Origin: a virus
Direction: 5' to 3' (one strand)
Virus record (IMG/VR): IMGVR_UViG_3300021432_000008
Location: 1 to 64,000 of that record
DNA: 64,000 bases
The notes under the pieces were generated by a model. It saw only the letters and a list, made by a program, of their open reading frames with translations. It did not search any database and had not been told where the DNA came from. The translations under genes and the position numbers were made by a program. The stretch's first letter is position 1. Every line of letters starts with the position of its first letter. Below are positions 12,499 through 58,575 of the stretch, in pieces.

Positions 12499-12891
12499 TC
12501 ACCCTGTCTTCTGCCGCTCGCGGTACTCCTTCTCGTATTCCCTGCGCCTCTCCATAGACTTCGGGCGGGCCCGGTATTCATGCCGGGCGGCGAGGCACCG
12601 ATTGCAGCTCTTGGCCTCGCCGAATTCAGACGCCTCCTTGGTCGCCTTGCAGCGCACGCACGTTCGCACTTGGAGAACACCGTCCGCGCGAATGCTCTCC
12701 ATGCGCTGCTCCTCGCGGCAGTACCGCGCCAGCAGCAGGCTCACGCGACGCATGAGCGCCACGTCGAACACTGTGTCGCCGGGCGGGACGGGCGCCGGCT
12801 CCGCAGCGCACCGCGGCCGGCTGAAGTGCGAGGGGCAGGGGGCGACGGTACTCGGGCGGCGGGCGTGAACTTCCTGGTCTGTGGCGTCCAT
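12499..12891 (-). CDS. Zn-finger protein immediately downstream of the CRISPR array
   Basis: CVRCKATKEASEF...CNRC; its GGAGGT SD overlaps the last repeat. Confidence 0.65.
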   Translation of the reverse strand: MDATDQEVHARRPSTVAPCPSHFSRPRCAAEPAPVPPGDTVFDVALMRRVSLLLARYCREEQRMESIRADGVLQVRTCVRCKATKEASEFGEAKSCNRCLAARHEYRARPKSMERRREYEKEYRERQKTG

Positions 12892-12899
12892 GATGACCT

Positions 12900-13372
12900 C
12901 CCGCAACGCCTTCAAAGTTCCCTGAGCCGTTGCTGGCCGACGTGTTGTGAGGACAAGTTCGATAGCTACGTCTGCCAGCAACTATCTCAAGGTTCCCTGA
13001 ATCGTTGCCGGATGAGCGACTGATAGCCCCCTGGTCTTCTTCGACGACCCGCAACGCTCTCAGGGTTCCCTCGATCGTTGCCGGGCCTATTCCGGAGATC
13101 CCAAGATGACCCGCAACTTTCTCAGGGCTCCCTTGATCGTTGCTGGCCGCCGGCGATCGTCTCGAAGGTGTGCCGAATGCTGTACCCGCAACTTTCTCAG
13201 GGCTCCCTTGATCGTTGCTGGACGATCCTTTTACCACCTGGAGATTATCGACCATGCAAGTCCCGCAACTTTCTCAGGGCTCCCTTGATCGTTGCTGGTT
13301 GTCTGGAACCCAGAACACCGCTGCCTGCATTGCCGCCCGCAACTTTCTCAGGGCTCCCTTGATCGTTGCTGG
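12900..13372 (-). CRISPR. CRISPR array: 7 x 37-bp repeats (transcribed CCAGCAACGATCAAGGGAGCCCTGAGAAAGTTGCGGG), 6 spacers of 38,36,25,38,40,37 bp (left to right)
   Basis: Repeats at 12900, 12975, 13048, 13110, 13185, 13262, 13336. The four right-hand copies are identical; the left three carry 5, 7 and 11 mismatches, so the leader is on the right. Confidence 0.95.
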
Positions 13373-13589
13373 AGTCGCGGCCATAAAGGCATTGTTCCAG
13401 CCCATTTAAGCGACGTTTCGCGAGAGGCGCCCATCGGCAAGCGATTGTGGCCTTGGTCGCGCTCAGCTTGGCGGTAGCTGGATGTTGGCAGCATTGGAGT
13501 TACGTCTCCGCGAGCGGTTCGCCGCAACCTATTTGGAACAAACGGTGTCCATCAAGTGGGTTACGGCAAGATCCGCTCTGTCCATCGAT
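13373..13589 (-). promoter_or_regulatory. CRISPR leader (possible tracr/scout RNA region)
   Basis: Non-coding gap beside the conserved array end; CGCGAG(A/C)GG direct repeat at 13419 and 13509. Confidence 0.65.
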
Positions 13590-13949
13590 TCAAGCGCCAC
13601 GCCGCTCGCGGAGTCGCTCTAGTTCAGCTGTCAGTTCCGCCTCGCGCTGGCGGAGAGCGTCGTCGCTGCTCTCGCCGTCGTCGGCGATATTACATACCTC
13701 CTTCTGGGCGCCAACGCGCTGGCCGATCTCAATGGAACGCAAGCCCGTGTTCACGCCGCGCAGCGACGTGTTCAGCTCTTTGCTCCCGTGGGCGCCGTGG
13801 AGCGCATCGAGCGAATGTCCGATAGCGAAGTTGGTAATGTCCTGCACCGTGCGGATACCGCCGGATGCGACTTCGAGCGCCTTGCTCTTGCGCGGCCCGC
13901 CAGCAGTCGCCGGGTCGCCTTGACGTGTAATCGTGCCAGTCTCAGCCAT
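13590..13949 (-). CDS. 119-aa hypothetical protein between the effector and the array
   Basis: AAAGGGG RBS; MAETGTITRQG...; C-terminal coiled coil. Confidence 0.7.
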   Translation of the reverse strand: MAETGTITRQGDPATAGGPRKSKALEVASGGIRTVQDITNFAIGHSLDALHGAHGSKELNTSLRGVNTGLRSIEIGQRVGAQKEVCNIADDGESSDDALRQREAELTAELERLRERRGA

Positions 13950-13962
13950 TCGTCGTCCCCTT

Positions 13963-15117
13963 TCATGCAGCAGTCTCCTCTTCTCCGTCCGAAGCGCACC
14001 GGCAAACGATGCCGGTCGCCTTGAGCTTGTCCTTGAGTAGAGCCTTGAGCTTGAACCACGGGAACCGCTCAATGTGACCTTGTTCGAGGTCGCTGTACAG
14101 TACCGTGCCGACGCGGTTGCGTTGGGCAAAGCCAACAAGGTGCGCCGCTGTCTCGTGGAGCCACGAGGCCATGCGGTTGTGATGCTTTCGGCAGCAGCGG
14201 CCCCGCGAGCGGTTAATGGCGCCCAGCGCATCAGGATTGAGACGCCGCTCTGCCTTGCTGTCCTGCGCCAACCGGTCGAGTCTATCCTCATGGGCGGCAA
14301 GCCAGGCGAACGCTCGCTTCATGTGGTCGTTGTTGAGAACCCATGCCTGCCGCCCATCCAACTCCGCTACCCAGAAGGCATTCGGGTCGGTGATCAGAGT
14401 TAATACGCGATCGCCCAACTTCTCACGGCAGGGCAACTCTGCCACCATCTTGACCAGCACGCGGGAATCCTCGCGAGCTTCCAGCCGCGGTCGGTGGCAA
14501 CTCGGGGAGCAATGCTGCTCGCGAATAACCAGCTGGAACATGGGCAGACTACCGTTGACCACCTGCCGGAATAGCCCCATCTGCCGGCCGAACTCGGCAC
14601 CGCCACGAAGCTGGATGCCGACTCCGCCGTCTGGAAAGGAAAACTCCTGCGATGGCAAAACGACTTCGATACACGGTCTTCCATTGCGGTCCAGTCGTGC
14701 CTGTCGCCAAGCCTGCGCGTGGATTGGCCACGGGTAGGGATAGCGGTAGGTACATGGCGCCTGCTTGCGATGCCAGATGACGTTCAGCCGTTCAGAAATG
14801 TACTTGCGCTCCACGTCGCGACAGATGGTGGAGGCACTTCTGCAAGCCCCCGTCCACCAGTTGCCCGGTTGCGTGAAGCCGAACGTCTCACTTGCGAGCC
14901 CGTACAATCCCTTGAGCCGCTTGCCGTTGATCTTCGGCATCTTCGCTAGCTTGACCATGCCGGGCAGCCGAACCACGTCGTTGCGAAGGAGTTGCTGGAC
15001 GCACCAGTTCGCAAGCATGGTCGCCTGCTTCCAGCACTCCCTGATCGTCTCCCACGCCTCGCGGGGTTCGACCACATTGACGGGCAACTCAAACGCTCTG
15101 ACTACCGTGTCGCTCAT
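13963..15117 (-). CDS. Compact TnpB/Cas12f-like type V effector, predicted nuclease-dead and C-terminally truncated (384 aa)
   Basis: Bridge helix/RuvC-II pattern HNRMASWLHETAAHLVGFAQRNRVGTVLYSDL; FPWFKLKALLKDKLKATGI; RuvC-I region VLTLITDP; no CxxC/RuvC-III; adjacent co-oriented array; GAGGAAGG RBS. Confidence 0.8.
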   Translation of the reverse strand: MSDTVVRAFELPVNVVEPREAWETIRECWKQATMLANWCVQQLLRNDVVRLPGMVKLAKMPKINGKRLKGLYGLASETFGFTQPGNWWTGACRSASTICRDVERKYISERLNVIWHRKQAPCTYRYPYPWPIHAQAWRQARLDRNGRPCIEVVLPSQEFSFPDGGVGIQLRGGAEFGRQMGLFRQVVNGSLPMFQLVIREQHCSPSCHRPRLEAREDSRVLVKMVAELPCREKLGDRVLTLITDPNAFWVAELDGRQAWVLNNDHMKRAFAWLAAHEDRLDRLAQDSKAERRLNPDALGAINRSRGRCCRKHHNRMASWLHETAAHLVGFAQRNRVGTVLYSDLEQGHIERFPWFKLKALLKDKLKATGIVCRCASDGEEETAA

Positions 15118-15151: not shown

Positions 15152-15179
15152 ATCGTACACCCGGTTTTCGGCGTGTCAA
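15152..15179 (-). promoter_or_regulatory. Promoter of the Cas12-like gene (TTGACA-16-TACGAT)
   Basis: Consensus -35 and near-consensus -10, about 35 bp upstream of the ATG. Confidence 0.75.
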
Positions 15180-15220
15180 TACCCTCCCAGCGGTGTCCGA
15201 ATTGGCACGGGCATAGCCGC

Positions 15221-15260
15221 GCACGCTGGCGCACGGTTACGCACGCTGGCGCACGGTTAC
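15221..15260. repeat. Tandem 2 x 20-bp repeat GCACGCTGGCGCACGGTTAC
   Basis: Directly visible; core CGCACGCTGGCGCAC recurs at 16248-16262. Confidence 0.9.
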
Positions 15261-18965: not shown

Positions 18966-20045
18966 TCATCCCAACCTACGGGCCACTTGCTTCGCCATCT
19001 CCAAGTCGGTTTGCTGGCCGTAGCCGTCCGTGACCTGAATGCTCTTCTGGCCGAGATAGCTTCGAGCAAAATCCAGTCCCAGCGCCCGCGTCACCCTCTG
19101 TTTCGCCGCATGCCGGCACTGGTACGGATGCAGCTGCACGCCGGCCTCCTCCGCGGCCGCGCGCACGGCCTTCGTCAGCCCCCAGCGCGAGTACGGGCCC
19201 CGCTGGCCGACGAACACGAAGTCGTCGCCGTTCTTGCCCTCCAGCCACGGCGCCAGAACCTTCTGCGCGCTCGTGCCCATGACGATCTCGCGGACGTGCC
19301 CAAGATGCGCGGTCTTGTGCTTAGCGGGCCGAAATACCCACTCCTCGCCAGCACGATCAACCTCGCACGCGCGCATCACGCGAACCTCGCCCGTGCGGCA
19401 CCCGGTAAACCACATGAAGAGCAACATCGCCCGCGGCATCGGCTTGAGCCGCCGGCACACGGCGATGATTGCCGGCCACTCTGCGGGCCGCACGGGCTCC
19501 GTGCTGCGGTGCTGGCGGTCCTGCTTGCCGATGGGTCGCAACGAGTGCAGGTGAGCCCATGAGCCTCTGGGAGCCAGCTTCAGACGCTCCAGCCGCCGCC
19601 AGATCGTCTTGATGCGGATGGTCTGCCGGTTGATGTGGTTGCGGCACCATCCCTTCTCGCCCATCGCCTTGCGGACGTCGTCCAGATCATCGATACCGAA
19701 GCCGTCCGTCGTCAGGTCGCGGTGGAGCGACAGCAGCACCTCGATCACGCGCTTGTAATGGCGGAACTCGTCGCGCTCGCCGTAGTGTCCCGTGGCCCAC
19801 TCAAGCCACTTGGCGATGGCCCCGGAGATGGTCGGCCACGCTCCGGCGAGGATGCGAGGCGGCTCGCCCGGTTGCGGTTTGTCGCTCTCAGCCGCAGCGA
19901 GCCGGACCAGCAGAGCGGCGTATTCCTGCGCGTTGTCACCACCGATGGGCCCGATGTAATAATCGTGCCCCCGCCAGCGGACCCGTTCTCGACCGCTGAT
20001 ATGGTGCGCCCGAGGTTGCGGCGGCCACTTCACCTTGCGTCCCAT
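18966..20045 (-). CDS. int: Tyrosine integrase/recombinase
   Basis: FTGCRTGE (R), HKT (K), HPYQCRH (HxxR), LGQKSIQVTDGY (Y). Confidence 0.93.
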   Translation of the reverse strand: MGRKVKWPPQPRAHHISGRERVRWRGHDYYIGPIGGDNAQEYAALLVRLAAAESDKPQPGEPPRILAGAWPTISGAIAKWLEWATGHYGERDEFRHYKRVIEVLLSLHRDLTTDGFGIDDLDDVRKAMGEKGWCRNHINRQTIRIKTIWRRLERLKLAPRGSWAHLHSLRPIGKQDRQHRSTEPVRPAEWPAIIAVCRRLKPMPRAMLLFMWFTGCRTGEVRVMRACEVDRAGEEWVFRPAKHKTAHLGHVREIVMGTSAQKVLAPWLEGKNGDDFVFVGQRGPYSRWGLTKAVRAAAEEAGVQLHPYQCRHAAKQRVTRALGLDFARSYLGQKSIQVTDGYGQQTDLEMAKQVARRLG

Positions 20046-21017: not shown

Positions 21018-23183
21018 CTACCAGATCCGGTGCGTCCCAATGCGTTCAACCGTGGCCGGCCGATCCGAAGCGCCGACAGCCTTCGCGCCGTTCAGTTGCT
21101 CTCTGAGCCAGAACGGACTGTGGAGGATGCGGCATCCCCAGAAGGGCAGTCCGCCCGTGTCGTGGTTCTTGTGGTTCCACGTATGGCCGGAGAGCGGGAA
21201 GATCGTGAAGTTACGCAGGACCGCCGCCACGCACAACGCCGACTGGTCATCGACGGACAGGGTTCGGCAGATGTCCCAGGCCTGGCTGACCACTTTCGCG
21301 AGTCCAGGGTGATCCTTGCGGAAGAAGATCACGCCGGCGTTGAAGAGCGGCACGAAGCTCGCTCCCGGTAGGTACTCGCGCACAGCCTTCGTTATGTGCT
21401 CGTATCCATCGACGATCTCGTTGTCGTCGCCATACTCGCGTTGCCCGACGTGGTGCTTGTCGTAGGCCATCGCCAGCCCGAACTGCTCGGCTCGCACGAA
21501 CGGCCAGTCGAAACTGATCGGATCGGGAGCATCGTGGGGAGGCAACCGCGGCGAGAGCGGATGCTCTGGCCCAATCACGAAGGCGTCGGTATCGAGGTAG
21601 AGCGTCAGGTCATAGGGCGACTTCTCGAAGATGACGAGCTTCTGCGCCATCGCGTTGCTGCCCACGCCAAACGCCGTCGCGTCGTAGGGTATCACGGAGT
21701 CGAACAGTCCACGATCGACAGCGAGGTTTGCCGTCTGCTCCAGCAGCAGAGAGATGGGCAGACCGAGCCGCCGGGCGCAGCGAGCGGAGTAGTGCAGCTC
21801 CTCCACGTTGTCGCTGGCGAACGGCTCGCTCCGATCCTCCGGCTGGCGTGGGTCATAGACGAGGAAGACGACACCCCGCGGCGGCGTGATGACAGTCATG
21901 CGGTTCTCCAGGTCGGCCTTGTCGAAGGTACGCAACTCGCTCCAGCGGTCATGGACGCCGACAGCCACTGTCCATCTCTCGCCGTCAAGGACGGCACCGC
22001 CGGGGAAGAGAACACCGGCGTACTGATCCGCCGGCTTCGTGTTCCAGTCGGCCGACGCGATCGGCTCGGACAGAAAACGCCTGATCGCAAATGGAGGCTT
22101 CGCATCGAAGGTATAGACGCCCATGTGGTAGGTAATCCGCCCACCCGGCTCCGTCCGCGAGTGGAAGAAGTGCCAGAACTCATCCCCCACGAGGACAGGG
22201 GAAGCACCGCCCCGCATTTCCCCTTCGGTCCAGTGAACCCGCGTCGGTGTCTGGTAGGCCATCTCCGCTTGCTCGCCATCGATACGGAGGATACGGTGTG
22301 GAGCGATGGAGTACACCGCGTAAAGGCTGCCGTCGTGCTCGAACACCCCCCAATTCTTCTCCCAGAGGTTCCTCTTGGGATAGTTCGGGTAGAAGATTTG
22401 CTCGACGCGCAGGTCATCGCTCAGGCGGGCATACAAGACGCTTGTGTGCAGGAACGTGGTCTTGCCCACAACGCCCGTGTACATGACGTGGAGCTTGCCG
22501 CGAAACATGAAGAGTCTGGGGTCTTCCCGTCCGAAATTCGCCTGCTGCTGGTGGAACAGGTCGAGCTTCACCGGCTCGCCAAACGGTCGAAAACGGGCAT
22601 CCATCCTCTGGAGGAAAATCTCGCTGCCCGCCCAGCCGTTGCGGAAGGCGAACAGGTAGCCGTCCTGCCAGCGGATGAGCGATGGGTTGAAGCGCAGACC
22701 GGATGGGCCGGGAAGGGTGTGCTGGTCGATGCGGATGGTGTTGCCGTCCTCGACTGTCGGGGCGATTGCCGGCACTGGGCCATGTGTGATGATGGGCGGA
22801 TTGTGGATGCGGGGCGGCTCTGTCCTTCTGTTCTTCGCCCTCTCGCGGTTCCGCTTCACCCGCTCTGCGTCCTTGCCCGCCTCCGGATGGTCGTTACATC
22901 GCTGGCAATAGCTGACTGCCCTGTCCTTAGATAGCTTCTCCTGCGTGCAGGAACCGTGGAGATTGCACGCCATCAGATCAACCATGACGACGCTGCCGCG
23001 GCAGGCATCGCACGGTGTTTCCCCGATCTTCGGCCCCTGATGGGGACAGATGCCGCGGAGCAAGTGCGCCCCACGCGATGGCTGGCCGTTCTCCCGCGCC
23101 TGCGCCAGCACGCGCGGATCGTCGTCCGCGACCTCGATCTCGTTGTACAGCCCCGGTCCCAGGTATTCGAGGATAGTTGGCAT
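21018..23183 (-). CDS. Fusion: Cys-rich N-domain + GH130-like beta-propeller glycosidase + GT-A glycosyltransferase
   Basis: FNPSLIR, REDPRLF, EKNW, RGGASPV, VLFPGG; then SPYDLTLYLDTD (DxD), FNAGVIFF, DDQSAL. Confidence 0.8.
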   Translation of the reverse strand: MPTILEYLGPGLYNEIEVADDDPRVLAQARENGQPSRGAHLLRGICPHQGPKIGETPCDACRGSVVMVDLMACNLHGSCTQEKLSKDRAVSYCQRCNDHPEAGKDAERVKRNRERAKNRRTEPPRIHNPPIITHGPVPAIAPTVEDGNTIRIDQHTLPGPSGLRFNPSLIRWQDGYLFAFRNGWAGSEIFLQRMDARFRPFGEPVKLDLFHQQQANFGREDPRLFMFRGKLHVMYTGVVGKTTFLHTSVLYARLSDDLRVEQIFYPNYPKRNLWEKNWGVFEHDGSLYAVYSIAPHRILRIDGEQAEMAYQTPTRVHWTEGEMRGGASPVLVGDEFWHFFHSRTEPGGRITYHMGVYTFDAKPPFAIRRFLSEPIASADWNTKPADQYAGVLFPGGAVLDGERWTVAVGVHDRWSELRTFDKADLENRMTVITPPRGVVFLVYDPRQPEDRSEPFASDNVEELHYSARCARRLGLPISLLLEQTANLAVDRGLFDSVIPYDATAFGVGSNAMAQKLVIFEKSPYDLTLYLDTDAFVIGPEHPLSPRLPPHDAPDPISFDWPFVRAEQFGLAMAYDKHHVGQREYGDDNEIVDGYEHITKAVREYLPGASFVPLFNAGVIFFRKDHPGLAKVVSQAWDICRTLSVDDQSALCVAAVLRNFTIFPLSGHTWNHKNHDTGGLPFWGCRILHSPFWLREQLNGAKAVGASDRPATVERIGTHRIW

Positions 23184-23184
23184 C

Positions 23185-26100
23185 TTACTTGTACACCACG
23201 AGGTTGCTTGCCCATGCCTGCGGGAATTGACCGTTGAGTACCGCCGCGACATTCGTGCTCGCCGCCGGTACAATCTGCCGGCCCTCCTGACACTCGGCGC
23301 TGTTCCCCGCGCCACCGATCGAACCGCTCTGCCCGCCCGTGAAGCTGTTGCCCCACGGGCGGAGTGGCGGCGGCTCCAGAATGAACGCTGCCGCCGCGTA
23401 AGAGCAGGCGGCGTCCGTCAGGATCGTTCCCGTGTTGGGCTGATTCCGGACGCCGTTGTTACCGCCTCCCTGATCGACGACGTTGAGGGCGAGCCCTGTC
23501 ACCTGTTCGACGGTCATGAACATATTGCCCGTCGCACCGCCCGCCAGGGTCGCCTGTATCGTGACACCGACGGCTCCCAGCGGCGATGCGACAGAGAAGG
23601 TAGTCACGCTGCCGGATACCAGTCCGCCGATGCTGGGCAGCTGCTCGGTGGCGTCCACGGGCATCGTCGTACCTGAGTACGTACAGGAGACGGCAGCGTT
23701 CGACTCCCAGACGTAGACCTGCACGATGACCCGCGAGGCGGCAGAGAAGGTGAGCGCCGTCTTGCTGATCGTGTTGACGAAGGCGGCACCCGAAGACACC
23801 GGAGGCGTCTTGCCCACAGACACGATGCTGCACGCGCCGGAGCCCGAGCCCGAACCGCTCGCGGCGCAATCGCCCTGAGTCGCCGTCACCGTGACCGAGC
23901 CGTCGCCCAGGGTGTTGTTGCAGCAGCCGTCCGCGTTGCCGATGCCCATGAACTGGAACCCGGTCCAGGTGATGACCGCTGGAGGTCCGCAAGCGACCGT
24001 TGTGGAGGGGACGCCGACGCCCTTGACAACGCCGCCCAGCTGCATGTCGCAATTGACGCCGTTGATCTCCAGGTTGAGATAGTACGTCCCTTTGTCGCAC
24101 CAGATAGTGCCCTGAGCGATATAGGCGCAGGTGCCGCTTCCCGAGCCGGAACCCGAACCGCTGCCACCAGCGCCGGCCAATTCAGGAGGGCAAGCCGGGA
24201 AGGTGTTGACACATCCGCCGGCAGTCCAGCCAGCGGGGTAGGAGACTGTGGCGGTGCAGGTGGGCAACACGAAGGACGGGGTCGGGCAGACGGTGCCGTA
24301 AATCGCGCAAAACTCGAACGGTACGGCCTGAGTGCAGAGCGCCTGTATGGGAAACGTGATGGGGAAAGCCGTGCAGGGGGCGTCGCCGGTACTCAGCAGA
24401 GTGCCGCCGCCGAAGATGCCTCCTGGACAGCCCGGAAGACCCAAGCAGTCTCCGTCTCCGCCTTGCGGGTCGATCGGGCAGAAGAAGAGGGTGCCGTTGA
24501 CGTTGTCGGCCGGAGAATTATCCTTGTGGCAGACATAGACGAGGTAACCGATCCACGTCTTCGGGGTGCAGCCAGTTGTCGAGGTGCCGAGCTGGAAGCC
24601 GCTGAGACTAGCAACCGCTGCCCAGTTTTGCGAGGGCGACACGTTGCAATGGGCGCTGCTGGTGGCGACGAGGTTGTAGCTCGATCGGTCGAAGACAATG
24701 CCTGGCGTGCAGGAACCAATAGACGCCACAAGGACGGCCGGCATCGCTGCCGGACAGCATACGTCTGCCGCGATGCAGCAGTCCAGCCCGAAAGAATCTC
24801 CCGTGCAAGTGCAGGGCGTGCTGACGAGCGTCGGCGGCAGCAACCATGTCCCATCGTCCTGCTCTATAAACGTCAGGCACACGCCGTCCAGGCATGGGCA
24901 GCCCGACACGTTCGCCAGGCACACGCACAGGTCATCGGAGAAGTTGCAGCATACGGGTGACGGGCAGCACGGCGGGTTGACGAAGCACGTCTTCGTCGGG
25001 ATACCCGTCCAGGTATCGGTGCAGGTGACCTCGACAATCACGTCAAAGCCGGCGCCGCTGCCGAATTCTCCCGAGCCCGACCCGCTGTGCGGGCGGATGC
25101 ACGTCGCCGTCTGGCTGCACAGGTAGCGGGAGGACAGCACGGGGGGCGGCGGGATACACAGGAGCGTGCAGGTGTTCGGCTCCGTCACGAAAACAAAGTC
25201 GGCGCCGATCGGGACAGGCGTCAGGTAGACGTTGTCGAACGCGATCACGGTGCCGGGAGCGAGGTTGCCGATCACCTGCCCGACGACCGTCTGGATGATG
25301 CCCTGTCCCACTCCGGCGATGGCACCAACGCGGGCGGGGATGAACGTCGTGGCCTTCGCCGTCCCCGTTGCCGGCTGACAGCCCTTCCCTGGACCGAAGT
25401 AGTTGCCGATCAGGAGCGTTTGCGAGTGATCGAGGTACGGGCCGCGCTCCACTCTGGTAGTGACACGGTTGGCGTCCGCGACGTATTCCGCCAACGCGAC
25501 GATGCCATCGAAGACCCACGGGACGCAACCCGAATAGCAGGCGTCGATGCCCTCCGCCATCCACCGATACCAGTCGGACGCCGCCTGCTTCGCCAACGCC
25601 AGAAGCGTCGCCTCGTTGGTCGGTATCGTCGCCGGAGGCGTGTACGTGGCCGCCAGCGACGTGCGTAGCGTCTTGGTGCCGTTGAACCCGGCTGCCGTGC
25701 CCATCTCAGAGAGAGACAAGCTGGTGAGCGTCACCTGCTCAATCCACGTCGGGCCGCCCTGACCGGGGAACGTGACTGTGACGGATGACGGCAGGATCGT
25801 GTTCAGGTCCGTCTGTGCGTAGGGTACGAGGTCGAAGACGTCGCCCTCCAGCCGCACGGCGAGGTTCAGGTTCGCGGCGAAGGCTGCCTGCCCAGAAGTC
25901 GCGTTGAGCGCCAGCACGGTCCCGTCAGTCCTGCGAACTATTCGCTGGCCGCAGGAGAACGCCACGGCATCGAGCAAGAGTGGCAGTGTCGGGTAGTCGA
26001 GCGTCAACTCGTTCGACGGCACGAGGTAGGCGGCGGGAACCGTGTCCGCTGTGATGGTGATTCCGAGGGCGGTCGCGATCTGGGCATAGAGCTGCGCCCA

Positions 26101-54781: not shown

Positions 54782-55045
54782 TCATCGCAAGAACCTCCAC
54801 CAGAGAAACAGTTGTATCGCGGCCCCAGCGAGCGCACCGGCCAGTAACCCCGGCCATGCCCTCCGCCAGAGGAGCCTAAGGGTGGATTCCGTGGGCTTAA
54901 CGAAGTGTGGCACGTAGCCCTTCGGCGGTGCGTCCGGTATCGGTCGCGGTGGTATCATCACTGCCGGTCCTCTCAGCGGCGCAATCGCTCCCTCGGGTTT
55001 GTCGATGCGCTCGCCCTTGGCGTTCACGTAGACTGGCTGGCTCAT
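54782..55045 (-). CDS. Small protein with a C-terminal TM helix
   Basis: AWPGLLAGALAGAAIQLFLWW. Confidence 0.5.
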   Translation of the reverse strand: MSQPVYVNAKGERIDKPEGAIAPLRGPAVMIPPRPIPDAPPKGYVPHFVKPTESTLRLLWRRAWPGLLAGALAGAAIQLFLWWRFLR

Positions 55046-58000
55046 TGAAATATCCCCCACTTTTTGAACACGTCGCTGCACTTCGGAAAGCGCTTCACGA
55101 TCTCCGCTCGGTCGGTGTCCGTCCCGTGGACCAGCCGGAAGAACTCCGCGAAGCCCTCACGCGGCAGCGTCTTCGCGTAGTCCGACAGCCCGCCCGGCTT
55201 GATCTCGCTCTGGTACGCCTCCTGCCACTCAGGCGAAGACGAGATCTCGTACTCCGGCCCATCGACGGCATGACCGAACTCGTGGGCGTACAGTTCGCGC
55301 GCCGGCTGGCCTCTTGGCGTATCGCCGTCGAGGTGGAGGCGCTTCCGCGAGCCGTCGTAACCGCCGCCAGCGATCTTGCCGGCGAACGCTGCCAGCTGCG
55401 AGGGCGGCAGGGCGCCCTTCGTGAGATCCTGACACGAGCCATAGAAGCGATACTCTCTTGCACCTTTGTTGAATCGCTCAAGAGCCTTCGCGGGCAGGGC
55501 GTGAAGGACCTGGCTTGCAGTAGCCCGGCACGCCTGTCGCTTCGTTTCGCCAAGAGCGGCATGGCGGTTGAGGGCATCGTCCAGGCGGAAGTGGGCGGCT
55601 TCCAGCGAATGGGCGCGGGAGGGAGAGGGCTTGTCGGGTTCCGGCTCGGCGGCGGGCTTTGTGGGCTCGGTGCGCTTCATCAGGTCCATCATGGAGGAGA
55701 GGGAGCCAGCGCCTTCCGCGACGGGGTCAACCTCTCCTTTCGGCTTCCACTCGCTTTCGGTTTCTCCTCCGGTCGGCGCCTTCTCGTACCCGGCTTTCGT
55801 CAGGGCATGGGCATAGATGCGTCGGCGTCTTTCCTCTGTCACGCCGTAGTGGATGCCCAGGCCGGCTTTTGCTGCCTTGCCCAGAAACGTCTGGAACTTG
55901 TGCATCAGATCAACAGTGCCCGGTTGAAGTTTCTTATTGGTCACGTCATACGAGGCATCCTGGGTGTATTGGATATACACCGCCTTATCTTGCGGCAGGA
56001 ATTCCAGGCCAAGTTTACGACCAGCTTCCTCGACAATCACGTCATCGTCCCCGGAGTCGGGACTGACAGACTCGCCGAACACTTCCTTCACGGCAGACTG
56101 GAATGCCCGTCGTGCTTCCTTCCTCTCGGCACGGCGTTTCTCCTTTTCCTCCTCCGTCCCCGACCGCCGTTTTTCCTTGTCGGCCTTCCGGCTATCGATG
56201 GACTGCTTCAGTTCCTTCCACCGCGCCATGGCGGCGTCAGCCTTCGCAATCGCATCGTCGGGCTGAGCCTTCTGCTCCACCTTCGCCTTCTCTTCCGGCG
56301 TCGCCTTCTCCATCACGTCGCCGGGGATGAACTCGCCGCCCGTGTAGAACGTACCGCCAATCGTGACACCACCCGCCGGAGCATGGTGCGCCGCGAACCG
56401 CAGCACCATCTCGTCAGCCAGCTCGCCCTTGCCGCACTTGCGCAAGTGGTTCACCACTCTGGCCAGCCGGGCGTGACGCAGGCTGACGGGGGCGAAGGGC
56501 GGAACCGCTGGCCGCATGGATGCGGAAGGGGCAGCGCTCGATGAAGGGGTGACGGCGCCGGAGTCGGGGGCCTCGGTGGGAGGCTCCACGACCACGTCCG
56601 GCTTCACCGTGTCGTCTTGCTCCCGTGCATACCGCAGTGCCTCCGTCGCCTCCCGCATGGCCCGCAGAGCGTCGAGGAAGTCGCCCCCGCCTCCGGGCTG
56701 GCCGTTGGGCTGTTCGTCTCCTGGCGCCCCCTCTGGCGATGGTGAGCCTCCACCACCTCCCATCAATGCCGCCAGAGGGTCAGCCCCACCGCCAGCCCCC
56801 GGCGGCCCACCGCCGGGGGCACCGCCCGCGGGCTGCGGCGGTTGCACCAGCTCGTCGCCGTCCGCCGGCTTGCCGAACCCAGCCGCGTCGCGCATGTCGT
56901 CGGCGCGGGTGGGAATGCCCATGTCCACGAGTGTCTTGCCCGAAGTGACCTTCTCTTGGTCCATCTTCGAGCCGTGATCGTAGACAAACGACACGGGGAA
57001 GTCGCTTATCGTCTCGGGAAAGCTGTACTCCTGCATGATGCTGACCATGCCGGGGTTGTACGTGTCCCCCGTCATGCTCATGGCGTGCCAGGCTGCATCC
57101 TGGCGAGCAATGGCTTCTTTGGTGTCCTGCTGAAACTCCGAAGACGACTTGTTGCTGTGCCCATCGGCCGACGTGGCACTGGCGCTGCCCTCCTGCCCCA
57201 CGACGTAGCGCTCCATCTGCTTGTCGAAATACTCCACCAGCTTGATCATCTCCCCCGCGCCGGCCGTGGGCACCTCCAGACGCTCCAGCGTGGTACTTCG
57301 CTCCTGTCCGGGGATGACGGGAACGAAGAGGTTGGCGCGGTCCGACTGGTTCTTGGCCGCCGTCTGTGCGGCGTTCAGCGCTTCCACGTTGCCGGACGGG
57401 TAGGTCCAGATGTTGACGCCCAGCCCTATGCGGTCATAGAACTCAGCAACCCTGCCAAGGAAGTCTTTCTTGAGGAAGTCGCACCAGAACAGGTGCGAGC
57501 GGATGCCGACGCCGTGGATGGCGTCCCCCTGCATCGAGCCCAGGAAGAAGTCGCGGTCCTCCATGAACTGGTAGTGCAAGAGGAAACGCTTCCGCCATGT
57601 TCCGCGCAGGGAGAGTGCCCTTCCCACGGTCGTGTTGACGATGGAAGCGTTGGGGTCGAGGTGTCTCAACTCGTTCGTGTAGGCGCTGTTCACGAGGACG
57701 TAGGGGGTGCCGTCGAGCTGGTGGCCGATCTTGTCTCCCTGGACCTCCCACGCCTGCAAGACGCTGAGAGCCTTTCGCTTCTTCGCTCCCGTGCCGAACT
57801 GCTGATCCGGGTTGGGCAGCCCCATCTCGTCGAGGCGGGCGCCGTAGGCTTTCTCCGCTCCACGATCGGCGGGATCTTCAAGCATGCGCTCGCGGAGGTA
57901 GCGGAGCACGGGGTCAATGCGCATCATGGCCTGTGCAGCAGCGGGAGCGGGTGCCGGCTGCTGCTGGGTAGGCTGTTTGCCCTTGTCCTTCTTCGCGTCG

Positions 58001-58575
58001 AAGTCGTCGCGGACATCCGTCTTGCCCCACTCGATCTGCACGCCCTGCCGGCCGAACCAGATGGCCCAGTAGTGCGACGGGATGATCCGCGGCATCTGGG
58101 TGACGGCCTTCATCTGGCGCGTGAGGCTGTCCTTGACATGGACCTGCCAGGGGTCCTTCTCGTCGGGCACTTCCAGGTGCCACTTGCGGGACGATACCGC
58201 CAGCATGCGCTCCTGAAGCAAGCCGCGAAGGTAGACGTCGTTGAGCATGTCAACAGCGTCCTTGCGGCCGTGGCGCATCGCCTCATCGTACATGGTCTGC
58301 CAGAACGTGTAGTCGCCGCCCGTGGTTCTCGCGACGAAGAGGTAGCCGCCCGGCAGCGCCAGGCCGCCGGGGTGGGCGTTGCCGTCTGGGACCTTGCGAT
58401 CGGAGCGGATGGGCCGGCCCATGCCGTCCACCAGCTGGGGCGCTCCGCCTGCTGAGATGTGCTGGAGCGCCATGTCGGAGAAGGCGTTGCCCACGGACAC
58501 CTTGCCCTGCGGGTAGATGCCCGGCTCCGTGAAGGAGTGCGTCGGCTGCTGGAGTGTCGAGCGGGAGCGGGCCAT
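55042..58575 (-). CDS. Portal protein (DUF935/Mu gp29-like) fused to C-terminal domains ending in a zincin metallopeptidase
   Basis: LQERMLAVSSRKWHLE, AIWFGRQGVQIEW, HGVGIRSHLFW, FDKQMERYVVGQ; ELYAHEFGHAVD...SDYAKTLPREGFAE. Confidence 0.85.
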   Translation of the reverse strand: MARSRSTLQQPTHSFTEPGIYPQGKVSVGNAFSDMALQHISAGGAPQLVDGMGRPIRSDRKVPDGNAHPGGLALPGGYLFVARTTGGDYTFWQTMYDEAMRHGRKDAVDMLNDVYLRGLLQERMLAVSSRKWHLEVPDEKDPWQVHVKDSLTRQMKAVTQMPRIIPSHYWAIWFGRQGVQIEWGKTDVRDDFDAKKDKGKQPTQQQPAPAPAAAQAMMRIDPVLRYLRERMLEDPADRGAEKAYGARLDEMGLPNPDQQFGTGAKKRKALSVLQAWEVQGDKIGHQLDGTPYVLVNSAYTNELRHLDPNASIVNTTVGRALSLRGTWRKRFLLHYQFMEDRDFFLGSMQGDAIHGVGIRSHLFWCDFLKKDFLGRVAEFYDRIGLGVNIWTYPSGNVEALNAAQTAAKNQSDRANLFVPVIPGQERSTTLERLEVPTAGAGEMIKLVEYFDKQMERYVVGQEGSASATSADGHSNKSSSEFQQDTKEAIARQDAAWHAMSMTGDTYNPGMVSIMQEYSFPETISDFPVSFVYDHGSKMDQEKVTSGKTLVDMGIPTRADDMRDAAGFGKPADGDELVQPPQPAGGAPGGGPPGAGGGADPLAALMGGGGGSPSPEGAPGDEQPNGQPGGGGDFLDALRAMREATEALRYAREQDDTVKPDVVVEPPTEAPDSGAVTPSSSAAPSASMRPAVPPFAPVSLRHARLARVVNHLRKCGKGELADEMVLRFAAHHAPAGGVTIGGTFYTGGEFIPGDVMEKATPEEKAKVEQKAQPDDAIAKADAAMARWKELKQSIDSRKADKEKRRSGTEEEKEKRRAERKEARRAFQSAVKEVFGESVSPDSGDDDVIVEEAGRKLGLEFLPQDKAVYIQYTQDASYDVTNKKLQPGTVDLMHKFQTFLGKAAKAGLGIHYGVTEERRRRIYAHALTKAGYEKAPTGGETESEWKPKGEVDPVAEGAGSLSSMMDLMKRTEPTKPAAEPEPDKPSPSRAHSLEAAHFRLDDALNRHAALGETKRQACRATASQVLHALPAKALERFNKGAREYRFYGSCQDLTKGALPPSQLAAFAGKIAGGGYDGSRKRLHLDGDTPRGQPARELYAHEFGHAVDGPEYEISSSPEWQEAYQSEIKPGGLSDYAKTLPREGFAEFFRLVHGTDTDRAEIVKRFPKCSDVFKKWGIFQ

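Follow-up and report, generated by a model that had tools for sequence, protein, structure and literature searches.

A soil-phage CRISPR-like array with a truncated Cas12f-fold effector and a spacer very likely copied from a foreign integrase

Phage SUSP1 needs VIPR, a non-cutting RNA-guided system, to silence the excision recombinase of the resident F5 satellite, and the VIPR guide lies within the recombinase coding sequence, on invariant codon positions (10.64898/2026.10.15.759431). Non-cutting RNA-guided proteins have also been described among the dCas12f, proteins truncated at the C-terminus so that part of the RuvC site is lost; a cluster of them associated with CRISPR arrays has been proposed to act as transcription repressors (Hoffmann et al. 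2026, PMC13472631), while dCas12f-sigmaE requires just a 5'-G PAM (PMC13472631). Phage-borne arrays against rival elements are represented by the type I-F system of ICP1, directed against PLE (PMC5665941), and by the arrays and CasPhi of huge phages (PMC7162821); phage mini-arrays without cas genes are known too (PMC7162821). Inside genes, ddCas12a represses most strongly with a crRNA that pairs to the template strand (PMC5460296).

Here we describe a locus on a soil phage, a CRISPR-like array beside a Cas12f-fold effector gene, that resembles each of these systems in part. VIPR is its closest functional parallel: both are phage-encoded, RNA-guided and non-cutting (predicted here), with a guide that falls on conserved codons in the recombinase coding sequence of a rival, which would thereby be immobilised. 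By analogy, the locus could act in the same way against a prophage, a satellite or an ICE. The two differ in their parts: VIPR works with Vipr filaments and vrRNAs made of GGYNN units, read with a 2-read/1-skip code, whereas our locus has 37-nt repeats, contiguous spacers of about 38 nt and a Cas12f-fold protein. Membership in VIPR was rejected on these grounds, there being no GGYNN units and an effector with the Cas12f fold. With dCas12f (PDB 9n9c, 9n9m) the effector shares the fold, the truncation point and the lack of the zinc finger and RuvC-III, and in both the guide is expected 3' of the repeat or scaffold. However, dCas12f-sigmaE resides in cellular genomes (Bacteroidota) and targets host promoters (susCD, efflux pumps), whereas the locus here sits on a phage, has no sigmaE gene, and its one assignable spacer corresponds to a gene of a foreign mobile element; the sequence similarity between the effectors is also remote (profile E = 1e-6). 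The best structural matches are active type V-F enzymes (OsCas12f 9nzq, AsCas12f 8j12, Un1Cas12f 7c7l; Foldseek E = 1e-16, TM about 0.65), which are of similar size and also come with a CRISPR array. In contrast to them, the effector family has the RuvC-II glutamate replaced and lacks the zinc finger and RuvC-III throughout, and no tracrRNA was recognised at our locus. ICP1 and the huge phages share with it a virus-borne array with spacers against competing mobile elements, yet their effectors cut or degrade DNA, while this one is predicted to bind only. Finally, ddCas12a (ddCpf1) is a type V protein with a 5' PAM and the template-strand pairing that we propose here (PMC5460296), but it is an engineered 1,300-aa Cas12a and no close relative, so that its strand rule would apply to Cas12f-like proteins by analogy.

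The locus lies in a 76,940-bp IMG/VR virus record, estimated to be 93% complete, of which bases 1-64000 were analysed (the window, 64,000 nt). The record encodes a Mu-like portal, a terminase, an excisionase and one tyrosine integrase. The elements of the locus are:

12900..13372, minus strand: CRISPR-like array, seven repeats of 37 nt and six unique spacers
13147..13184, minus strand: spacer 4, 38 nt; its reverse complement reads YSIRHTFETIAG in frame 0
13185..13221, minus strand: repeat adjoining spacer 4 on its 5' side, given the crRNA orientation proposed
13373..13589, minus strand: leader, the 217-nt intergenic stretch from the 119-aa ORF to the first repeat
13590..13949, minus strand: 119-aa ORF between the effector gene and the array, no family match
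13963..15117, minus strand: 384-aa Cas12f-fold effector, ending after the RuvC-II strand, without zinc finger and without RuvC-III
15152..15179, minus strand: sigma-70-like promoter match, TTGACA, 16-nt spacer, TACGAT (consensus match only)

The 37-nt direct repeats start at 12900, 12975, 13048, 13110, 13185, 13262 and 13336 and enclose spacers of 38, 36, 25, 38, 40 and 37 nt, in array order. The last four repeats (high-coordinate, leader-proximal) are identical, and the first three (low-coordinate, distal) are degenerate, with substitutions. The stretch thus has what defines a CRISPR array, i.e.: at least three near-identical direct repeats in the range of 23-55 nt, unique spacers of similar length, and a Cas12f-fold gene on the same strand about 590 nt upstream. 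Repeat and tandem-repeat scans of the locus found this array alone. The repeat is predicted to fold into a hairpin, end to end, in both orientations; it matched no family in Rfam, CRISPR-DR families included, and its pattern had 0 matches in IMG/VR. We found no adaptation module in the 76.9-kb record, 93% complete, as judged by cas1 (PF01867), and the 119-aa ORF had no match in Pfam, NCBIfam, PHROGs or PADLOC. A search for anti-repeats and tracrRNA gave no convincing anti-repeat and no recognisable scaffold RNA, so that the use of the array by the effector stays a proposal; the leader could be the site of a scaffold or tracr-like RNA.

The promoter-like site adjoins the effector gene on its upstream side, and all the parts, from this site through the effector gene, the 119-aa ORF and the leader to the array, are on the minus strand, with no terminator-like site found between them. 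Two independent features, this layout of the operon and the degeneration of the distal repeats, lead us to infer that the array is transcribed on the minus strand. Array fragments are present, with 0 sequence differences, in contigs from soil: one DNA run and two RNA-library runs. The two metatranscriptome libraries come from different studies, and their assembled contigs carry pieces of the array and leader (12850-13450); the leader is reached by contigs of a DNA run and of an RNA-library run. Spacer 4 is uncovered in the RNA-library contigs, and no additional contig was obtained with the spacer alone. The presence of array pieces in RNA-library contigs is compatible with expression, contigs being of a kind that reveals neither strand nor transcription.

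Other features of the phage were seen on the way. A perfect 20-nt tandem duplication (CGCACGCTGGCGCACGGTTA twice), which may be an operator, occupies 15220-15259, a short way upstream of the effector operon's promoter-like site. The 1,177-aa ORF at 55042-58575 bears a Mu-type portal domain (PF06074, E = 7e-27) and a C-terminus weakly similar to an anthrax lethal factor-type zincin (PF07737, E = 2e-4, below the cut-off). The 765-aa ORF at 21018-23315, which adjoins large tail-region ORFs, shows a weak match to a beta-1,2-mannobiose phosphorylase (GH130-like; PDB 7fip, E = 0.0016).

The preliminary description of this DNA had assumed a dCas12a effector. The protein is instead a 384-aa truncated Cas12f-like protein. 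Cas12a, with some 1,200-1,300 aa and a stem-loop repeat, was rejected given this size, the best matches (Cas12f/TnpB) and the 37-nt end-to-end hairpin of the repeat; the larger ORFs of the phage (1,141, 1,538 and 1,177 aa) gave no Cas matches. The effector belongs to a family of 717 representative clusters (50% identity) whose profile matches Cas12f (9nzq, E = 3e-9), a 'nuclease-deactivated Cas12f' (9n9c, E = 1e-6) and TnpB. Its AlphaFold2 model (pLDDT 89, pTM 0.81) had only Cas12f and dCas12f as top Foldseek matches (9nzq, E = 1e-16; 9n9c, E = 1e-14, TM 0.71 by target), and a look-up in the ESM Atlas concurs with the Cas12f fold. Aligned to active Cas12f, the protein has Ser342 (Asp in most relatives) at the position of the RuvC-II glutamate, and it ends 15 residues past the conserved Gly of the GI motif, the same endpoint as in 9n9c. 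The CxxC zinc finger and RuvC-III are absent in 40 of 40 aligned relatives, 31 of which have the RuvC-I Asp. Without a RuvC-II glutamate, a zinc finger or RuvC-III, the effector most likely binds DNA and does not cut it, residual activity being conceivable as the RuvC-I Asp is kept.

Some relatives of the effector bear a C-terminal extension of 60-110 aa with a conserved R-R-S-G-(S/P)-H-P-A-V, possibly a peptide on which a partner docks. A search for related loci in IMG/VR, and among phages and plasmids, found no relatives of the effector. The whole phage record contains no Sigma70_r2 domain and no rpoE operon, and the ORFs neighbouring the locus match no family.

The key observation concerns spacer 4, which occurs once in the 76.9-kb record. 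It had been described as encoding the box II motif of a foreign tyrosine integrase, and we reproduced both its coordinates and its frame-0 translation, YSIRHTFETIAG, which fits the (H/Y)-x-x-R-H-T-F of tyrosine recombinases in frame. Third codon positions are G/C in 11 of 12 codons, a count that alone leaves the strand undecided because the antisense frame has the same wobble positions. Hardly any proteins other than recombinases carry the box II pattern. A search of 301 genomes from a single phylum with [YH]-x-[LIVMF]-R-H-T-F-x-T yielded about 160 matches, two of which lie in the unpublished genomes G152 and G178; the reversed pattern, as a control, yielded 3. Of the matches sampled, 30 of 30 proved to be tyrosine recombinases of XerC/D or phage type. 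In this sample the residue following Phe was nearly always Ala and never Glu, and Tyr was rare at the first position, which at first weighed against the integrase reading. A scan of IMG/VR for the Glu variant settled the matter: back-translated [YH]x[LIVMF]RHTFET had 12 matches, and 10 of the 12 fell in the box II region of an integrase ORF. In these ten, box II reads F-Y-(S/A/W)-(L/M)-R-H-T-F-E-T-I-(A/G)-G and is followed by KDQ(I/V)AV..(I/V)MGH...Y; five of the seven full-length ORFs scanned exceeded the PF00589 cut-off.

The spacer peptide agrees in 11 of 12 residues with box II (F-YSLRHTFETIAG) of a large tyrosine-integrase family. The profile of this family collects 4,895 proteins at E <= 1e-10, and the named members among those listed are all from Planctomycetota (Rhodopirellula, Crateriforma, Neorhodopirellula, Gemmataceae). 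Variants of box II among the 108 members in which it is recognisable include YSLRHTFETIAG, YALRHTFETIAG and YAIRHTFETVGG. The best match to the spacer is the integrase of Rhodopirellula sp. MGV (L062), identical at 11/12 amino acids and 31/38 nucleotides in frame. The best DNA matches are integrase genes of IMG/VR proviruses (31/38 in L062 and L055, 30/38 in L059), and mismatches between the spacer and its integrase homologues fall mainly on wobble positions. When the whole array was compared by BLAST with five integrase records, only spacer 4 on the integrase box II came below E = 0.06, with per-record E-values of 2e-7 and 2e-6. As a control, we compared all 152,830 six-frame 12-mers of the phage genome with 29 box II variants: the best reached 7/12, against 11/12 for the spacer. 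The likeness of the spacer to box II is far beyond chance. We consider it very likely that spacer 4 was copied from an integrase of this Planctomycetota-type family. Neither the effector family nor a similar terminase was found in five records with a target-type integrase. In seven family genes, the box II window is 2nd of 1,565 for nucleotide conservation, a rank inflated by the selection of these genes for that very motif.

We sought the protospacer itself. No exact or near-exact copy was found in IMG/VR, GTDB genomes, JGI metagenomes, GenBank phages, PLSDB plasmids or the phage itself. The preliminary description had tied its reading to an integrase gene with this nucleotide sequence; none was found in the databases searched, the best being the 31/38 and 30/38 matches above (L062 and L055; L059). 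Likewise, no protospacer with a consistent PAM was found in foreign DNA, where no match is closer than 31/38. Within the phage record (up to 3 mismatches; blastn-short with the six spacers) there were chance matches, the best with 16 nt, 1 mismatch and E = 0.1. The full-length spacer, made degenerate (N) at its wobble positions, had 0 matches in IMG/VR, as did its 5' 18-mer and back-translated IRHTFETIAG and IRHTFET(I/M). The 3' 19-mer gave 7, extending to 27/38 at most and lying in tail-protein genes in 6 of 7 cases. Among these sequences, the 19 nt are found exactly in major tail protein genes of unrelated phages (L006, L007, L009-L011; peptide TTFETIANVT), showing that short GC-rich seeds from spacer 4 mislead. 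In the GTDB species genomes and JGI metagenomes the wobble-N pattern again had 0 matches, and a 20-mer seed had 4 and 3 respectively, none of which extends and none of which lies in a recombinase in that frame. Overall, seed matches end at the seed, at 23-27 of 38 nt, in unrelated sequence. In blastn searches against GenBank phages and PLSDB plasmids, neither the spacer by itself nor the complete array gave a match below E = 0.1; the matches at or above this value include a recombinase of an Arthrobacter plasmid, 27/32 in frame. The other five spacers showed no recognisable motif and no database match.

To place the target relative to the phage's own integrase, two further features are needed:

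18966..20045, minus strand: the phage's own tyrosine integrase, the sole PF00589 gene in the record
19087..19124, minus strand: site in the own integrase homologous to the protospacer (YQCRHAAKQ...), 14/38 nt identical to the spacer

The motif of the own integrase, HPYQCRHAAKQ, had been quoted correctly, and the conclusion drawn from it, that spacer 4 is not self-targeting, holds: the only integrase of the phage is identical at 14/38 nt at the homologous site, and there is no self-match elsewhere in the record. There is also no TTY codon in front of this site. A profile comparison makes the own integrase a remote relative of the family from which the spacer came (86% probability, E = 5e-6, 19% identity), with YQCRHA aligned to YSLRHT. 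The target would thus be a related yet distinct type of integrase, as expected of a different integrative element from the same group of hosts. In the own integrase, the box II histidine is replaced by Tyr (YQCRH), and LGQ stands where LGH is usual. An N-terminal motif, H-x-S-G-...-R-G-x-x-Y-(F/I)-G, is common to the own integrase and the integrase family of Planctomycetota, suggesting that the host is a planctomycete.

If the array is read on the minus strand, the spacer equals the coding strand of the integrase and the guide would pair with the template, as the preliminary description had it. The strand preference of ddCas12a would carry over to this effector by analogy. It is a general rule that R-loop roadblocks hold best if approached from the PAM side. 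T-rich PAMs are used by several Cas12f enzymes and not by others. The 5' flank of the protospacer had been named as the place to look for a PAM; the homologous integrase sites, which stand in for the target here, mostly have a TTY codon in front. In 105 of 108 family members the residue before the motif Tyr is Phe, and 8 of the 12 IMG/VR matches have TTC or TTT immediately 5' of the homologous site. As a conserved codon of the homologues, this TTY is a candidate 5' PAM, and as such a lead only.

These observations can be assembled into a mechanism. A spacer would have been captured from the box II segment (catalytic Arg-His) of a foreign 'F-Y-x-L-R-H-T-F-E-T-I-A-G' integrase of the type found in Planctomycetota proviruses. 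Transcription of the array on the minus strand would give a sense crRNA that pairs with the template strand of the rival's integrase gene; RNA polymerase would then meet the PAM-proximal side of the R-loop, with TTY as the 5' PAM, and stall there. The block would truncate the integrase transcript about 35 codons before the catalytic tyrosine, and a competing prophage, satellite or ICE deprived of its integrase would be blocked in integration or excision. Such silencing of a rival element's integrase is plausible. As for the whole, a captured foreign-integrase spacer serving a non-cutting Cas12f-like effector that silences a rival integrase, we find the case evenly poised. The spacer differs from its nearest gene at 7 positions, 3 of which lie within the first 16 nt; with such mismatches, the guide would bind none of the integrases compared. 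In addition, with one spacer of six assignable, a preference for integrases as a class of target has no statistical backing. A deliberate aim at a conserved integrase site is plausible from this one spacer of six.

That last point is where the best-surviving alternative departs. The spacer would still come from a foreign integrase, yet its position on box II would be incidental: the array would be a general memory of rivals, sampled wherever a PAM occurs, the phage would benefit from binding a rival genome anywhere, and the landing on a catalytic motif would reflect luck and the fact that only famous motifs are recognisable. The five spacers that lack a motif or a database match agree with this, and so does the inflated conservation rank of box II. 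On the other hand, box II makes up about 0.1% of a typical 40-kb element, which renders such a landing unlikely a priori (if recognised post hoc), a binding-only effector gains little at a random site, and, as VIPR shows, guides can become fixed on recombinase codons by selection (10.64898/2026.10.15.759431). We regard the incidental position as possible, though on the unlikely side.

If instead the array were serviced in trans by a nuclease-active CRISPR-Cas system of the host with the same repeat, the target would be cut and the Cas12f-like gene would be unrelated or vestigial. Hairpin repeats of 37 nt are also typical of several class 1 systems. No cas1 is present in the record, neither a tracrRNA nor an anti-repeat was found, and cas-less mini-arrays in phages offer a precedent (PMC7162821). 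The array, though, lies directly downstream of the Cas12f-fold gene, in the same orientation and with no terminator between them; published dCas12f guides consist of a scaffold followed by the guide and do not need a tracrRNA (PMC13472631); and the repeat pattern has 0 matches in IMG/VR. On balance, service by a host system seems improbable.

More improbable still is that the effector recruits a partner, the 119-aa protein, in the manner of dCas12f-sigmaE, so that the guide starts or redirects transcription at the target. The nearest solved relatives do include dCas12f, a transcription activator with sigmaE (PMC13472631), and an uncharacterised ORF does lie between the effector gene and the array. 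But the record has no Sigma70_r2, the 119-aa ORF is without a family match, and activation makes little sense at a target near the 3' end of a foreign coding sequence.

That the spacer stems from no recombinase gene at all and resembles one by chance, as the missing exact protospacer, a spacer open in all 6 frames and the chance matches of its 3' half in tail protein genes (TTFETIANVT) would allow, is hardly credible against 11/12 residues that include the unusual Tyr, Glu and Ile-Ala-Gly specific to one integrase family, a control maximum of 7/12 in 152,830 peptides, and a motif with about 160 matches versus 3 when reversed, recombinases in 30 of 30 sampled cases.

We therefore return to silencing of a rival integrase by a non-cutting effector. 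Silencing of this kind has a published analogue in VIPR. A bolder version, which we put forward tentatively and consider doubtful, is that soil phages of Planctomycetota carry a family-wide nuclease-dead Cas12f lineage (the 717 clusters) whose guides have been selected onto the catalytic codons of rival integrases, with the invariant Phe codon of the motif as PAM, so that competing prophages or satellites would be immobilised, in convergence with VIPR.

If the silencing reading is right, a virus would in nature be using non-cutting CRISPR interference against the integration machinery of another mobile element. It would also mean that the tactic of VIPR, known from E. coli phages, in which a recombinase is silenced at codons that cannot change, arose as well in a Cas12f-derived system of an unrelated, uncultured soil lineage. 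With a defined guide and a predicted target family, strand and TTY PAM, the locus is a cheap test case for the large dCas12f-like family.
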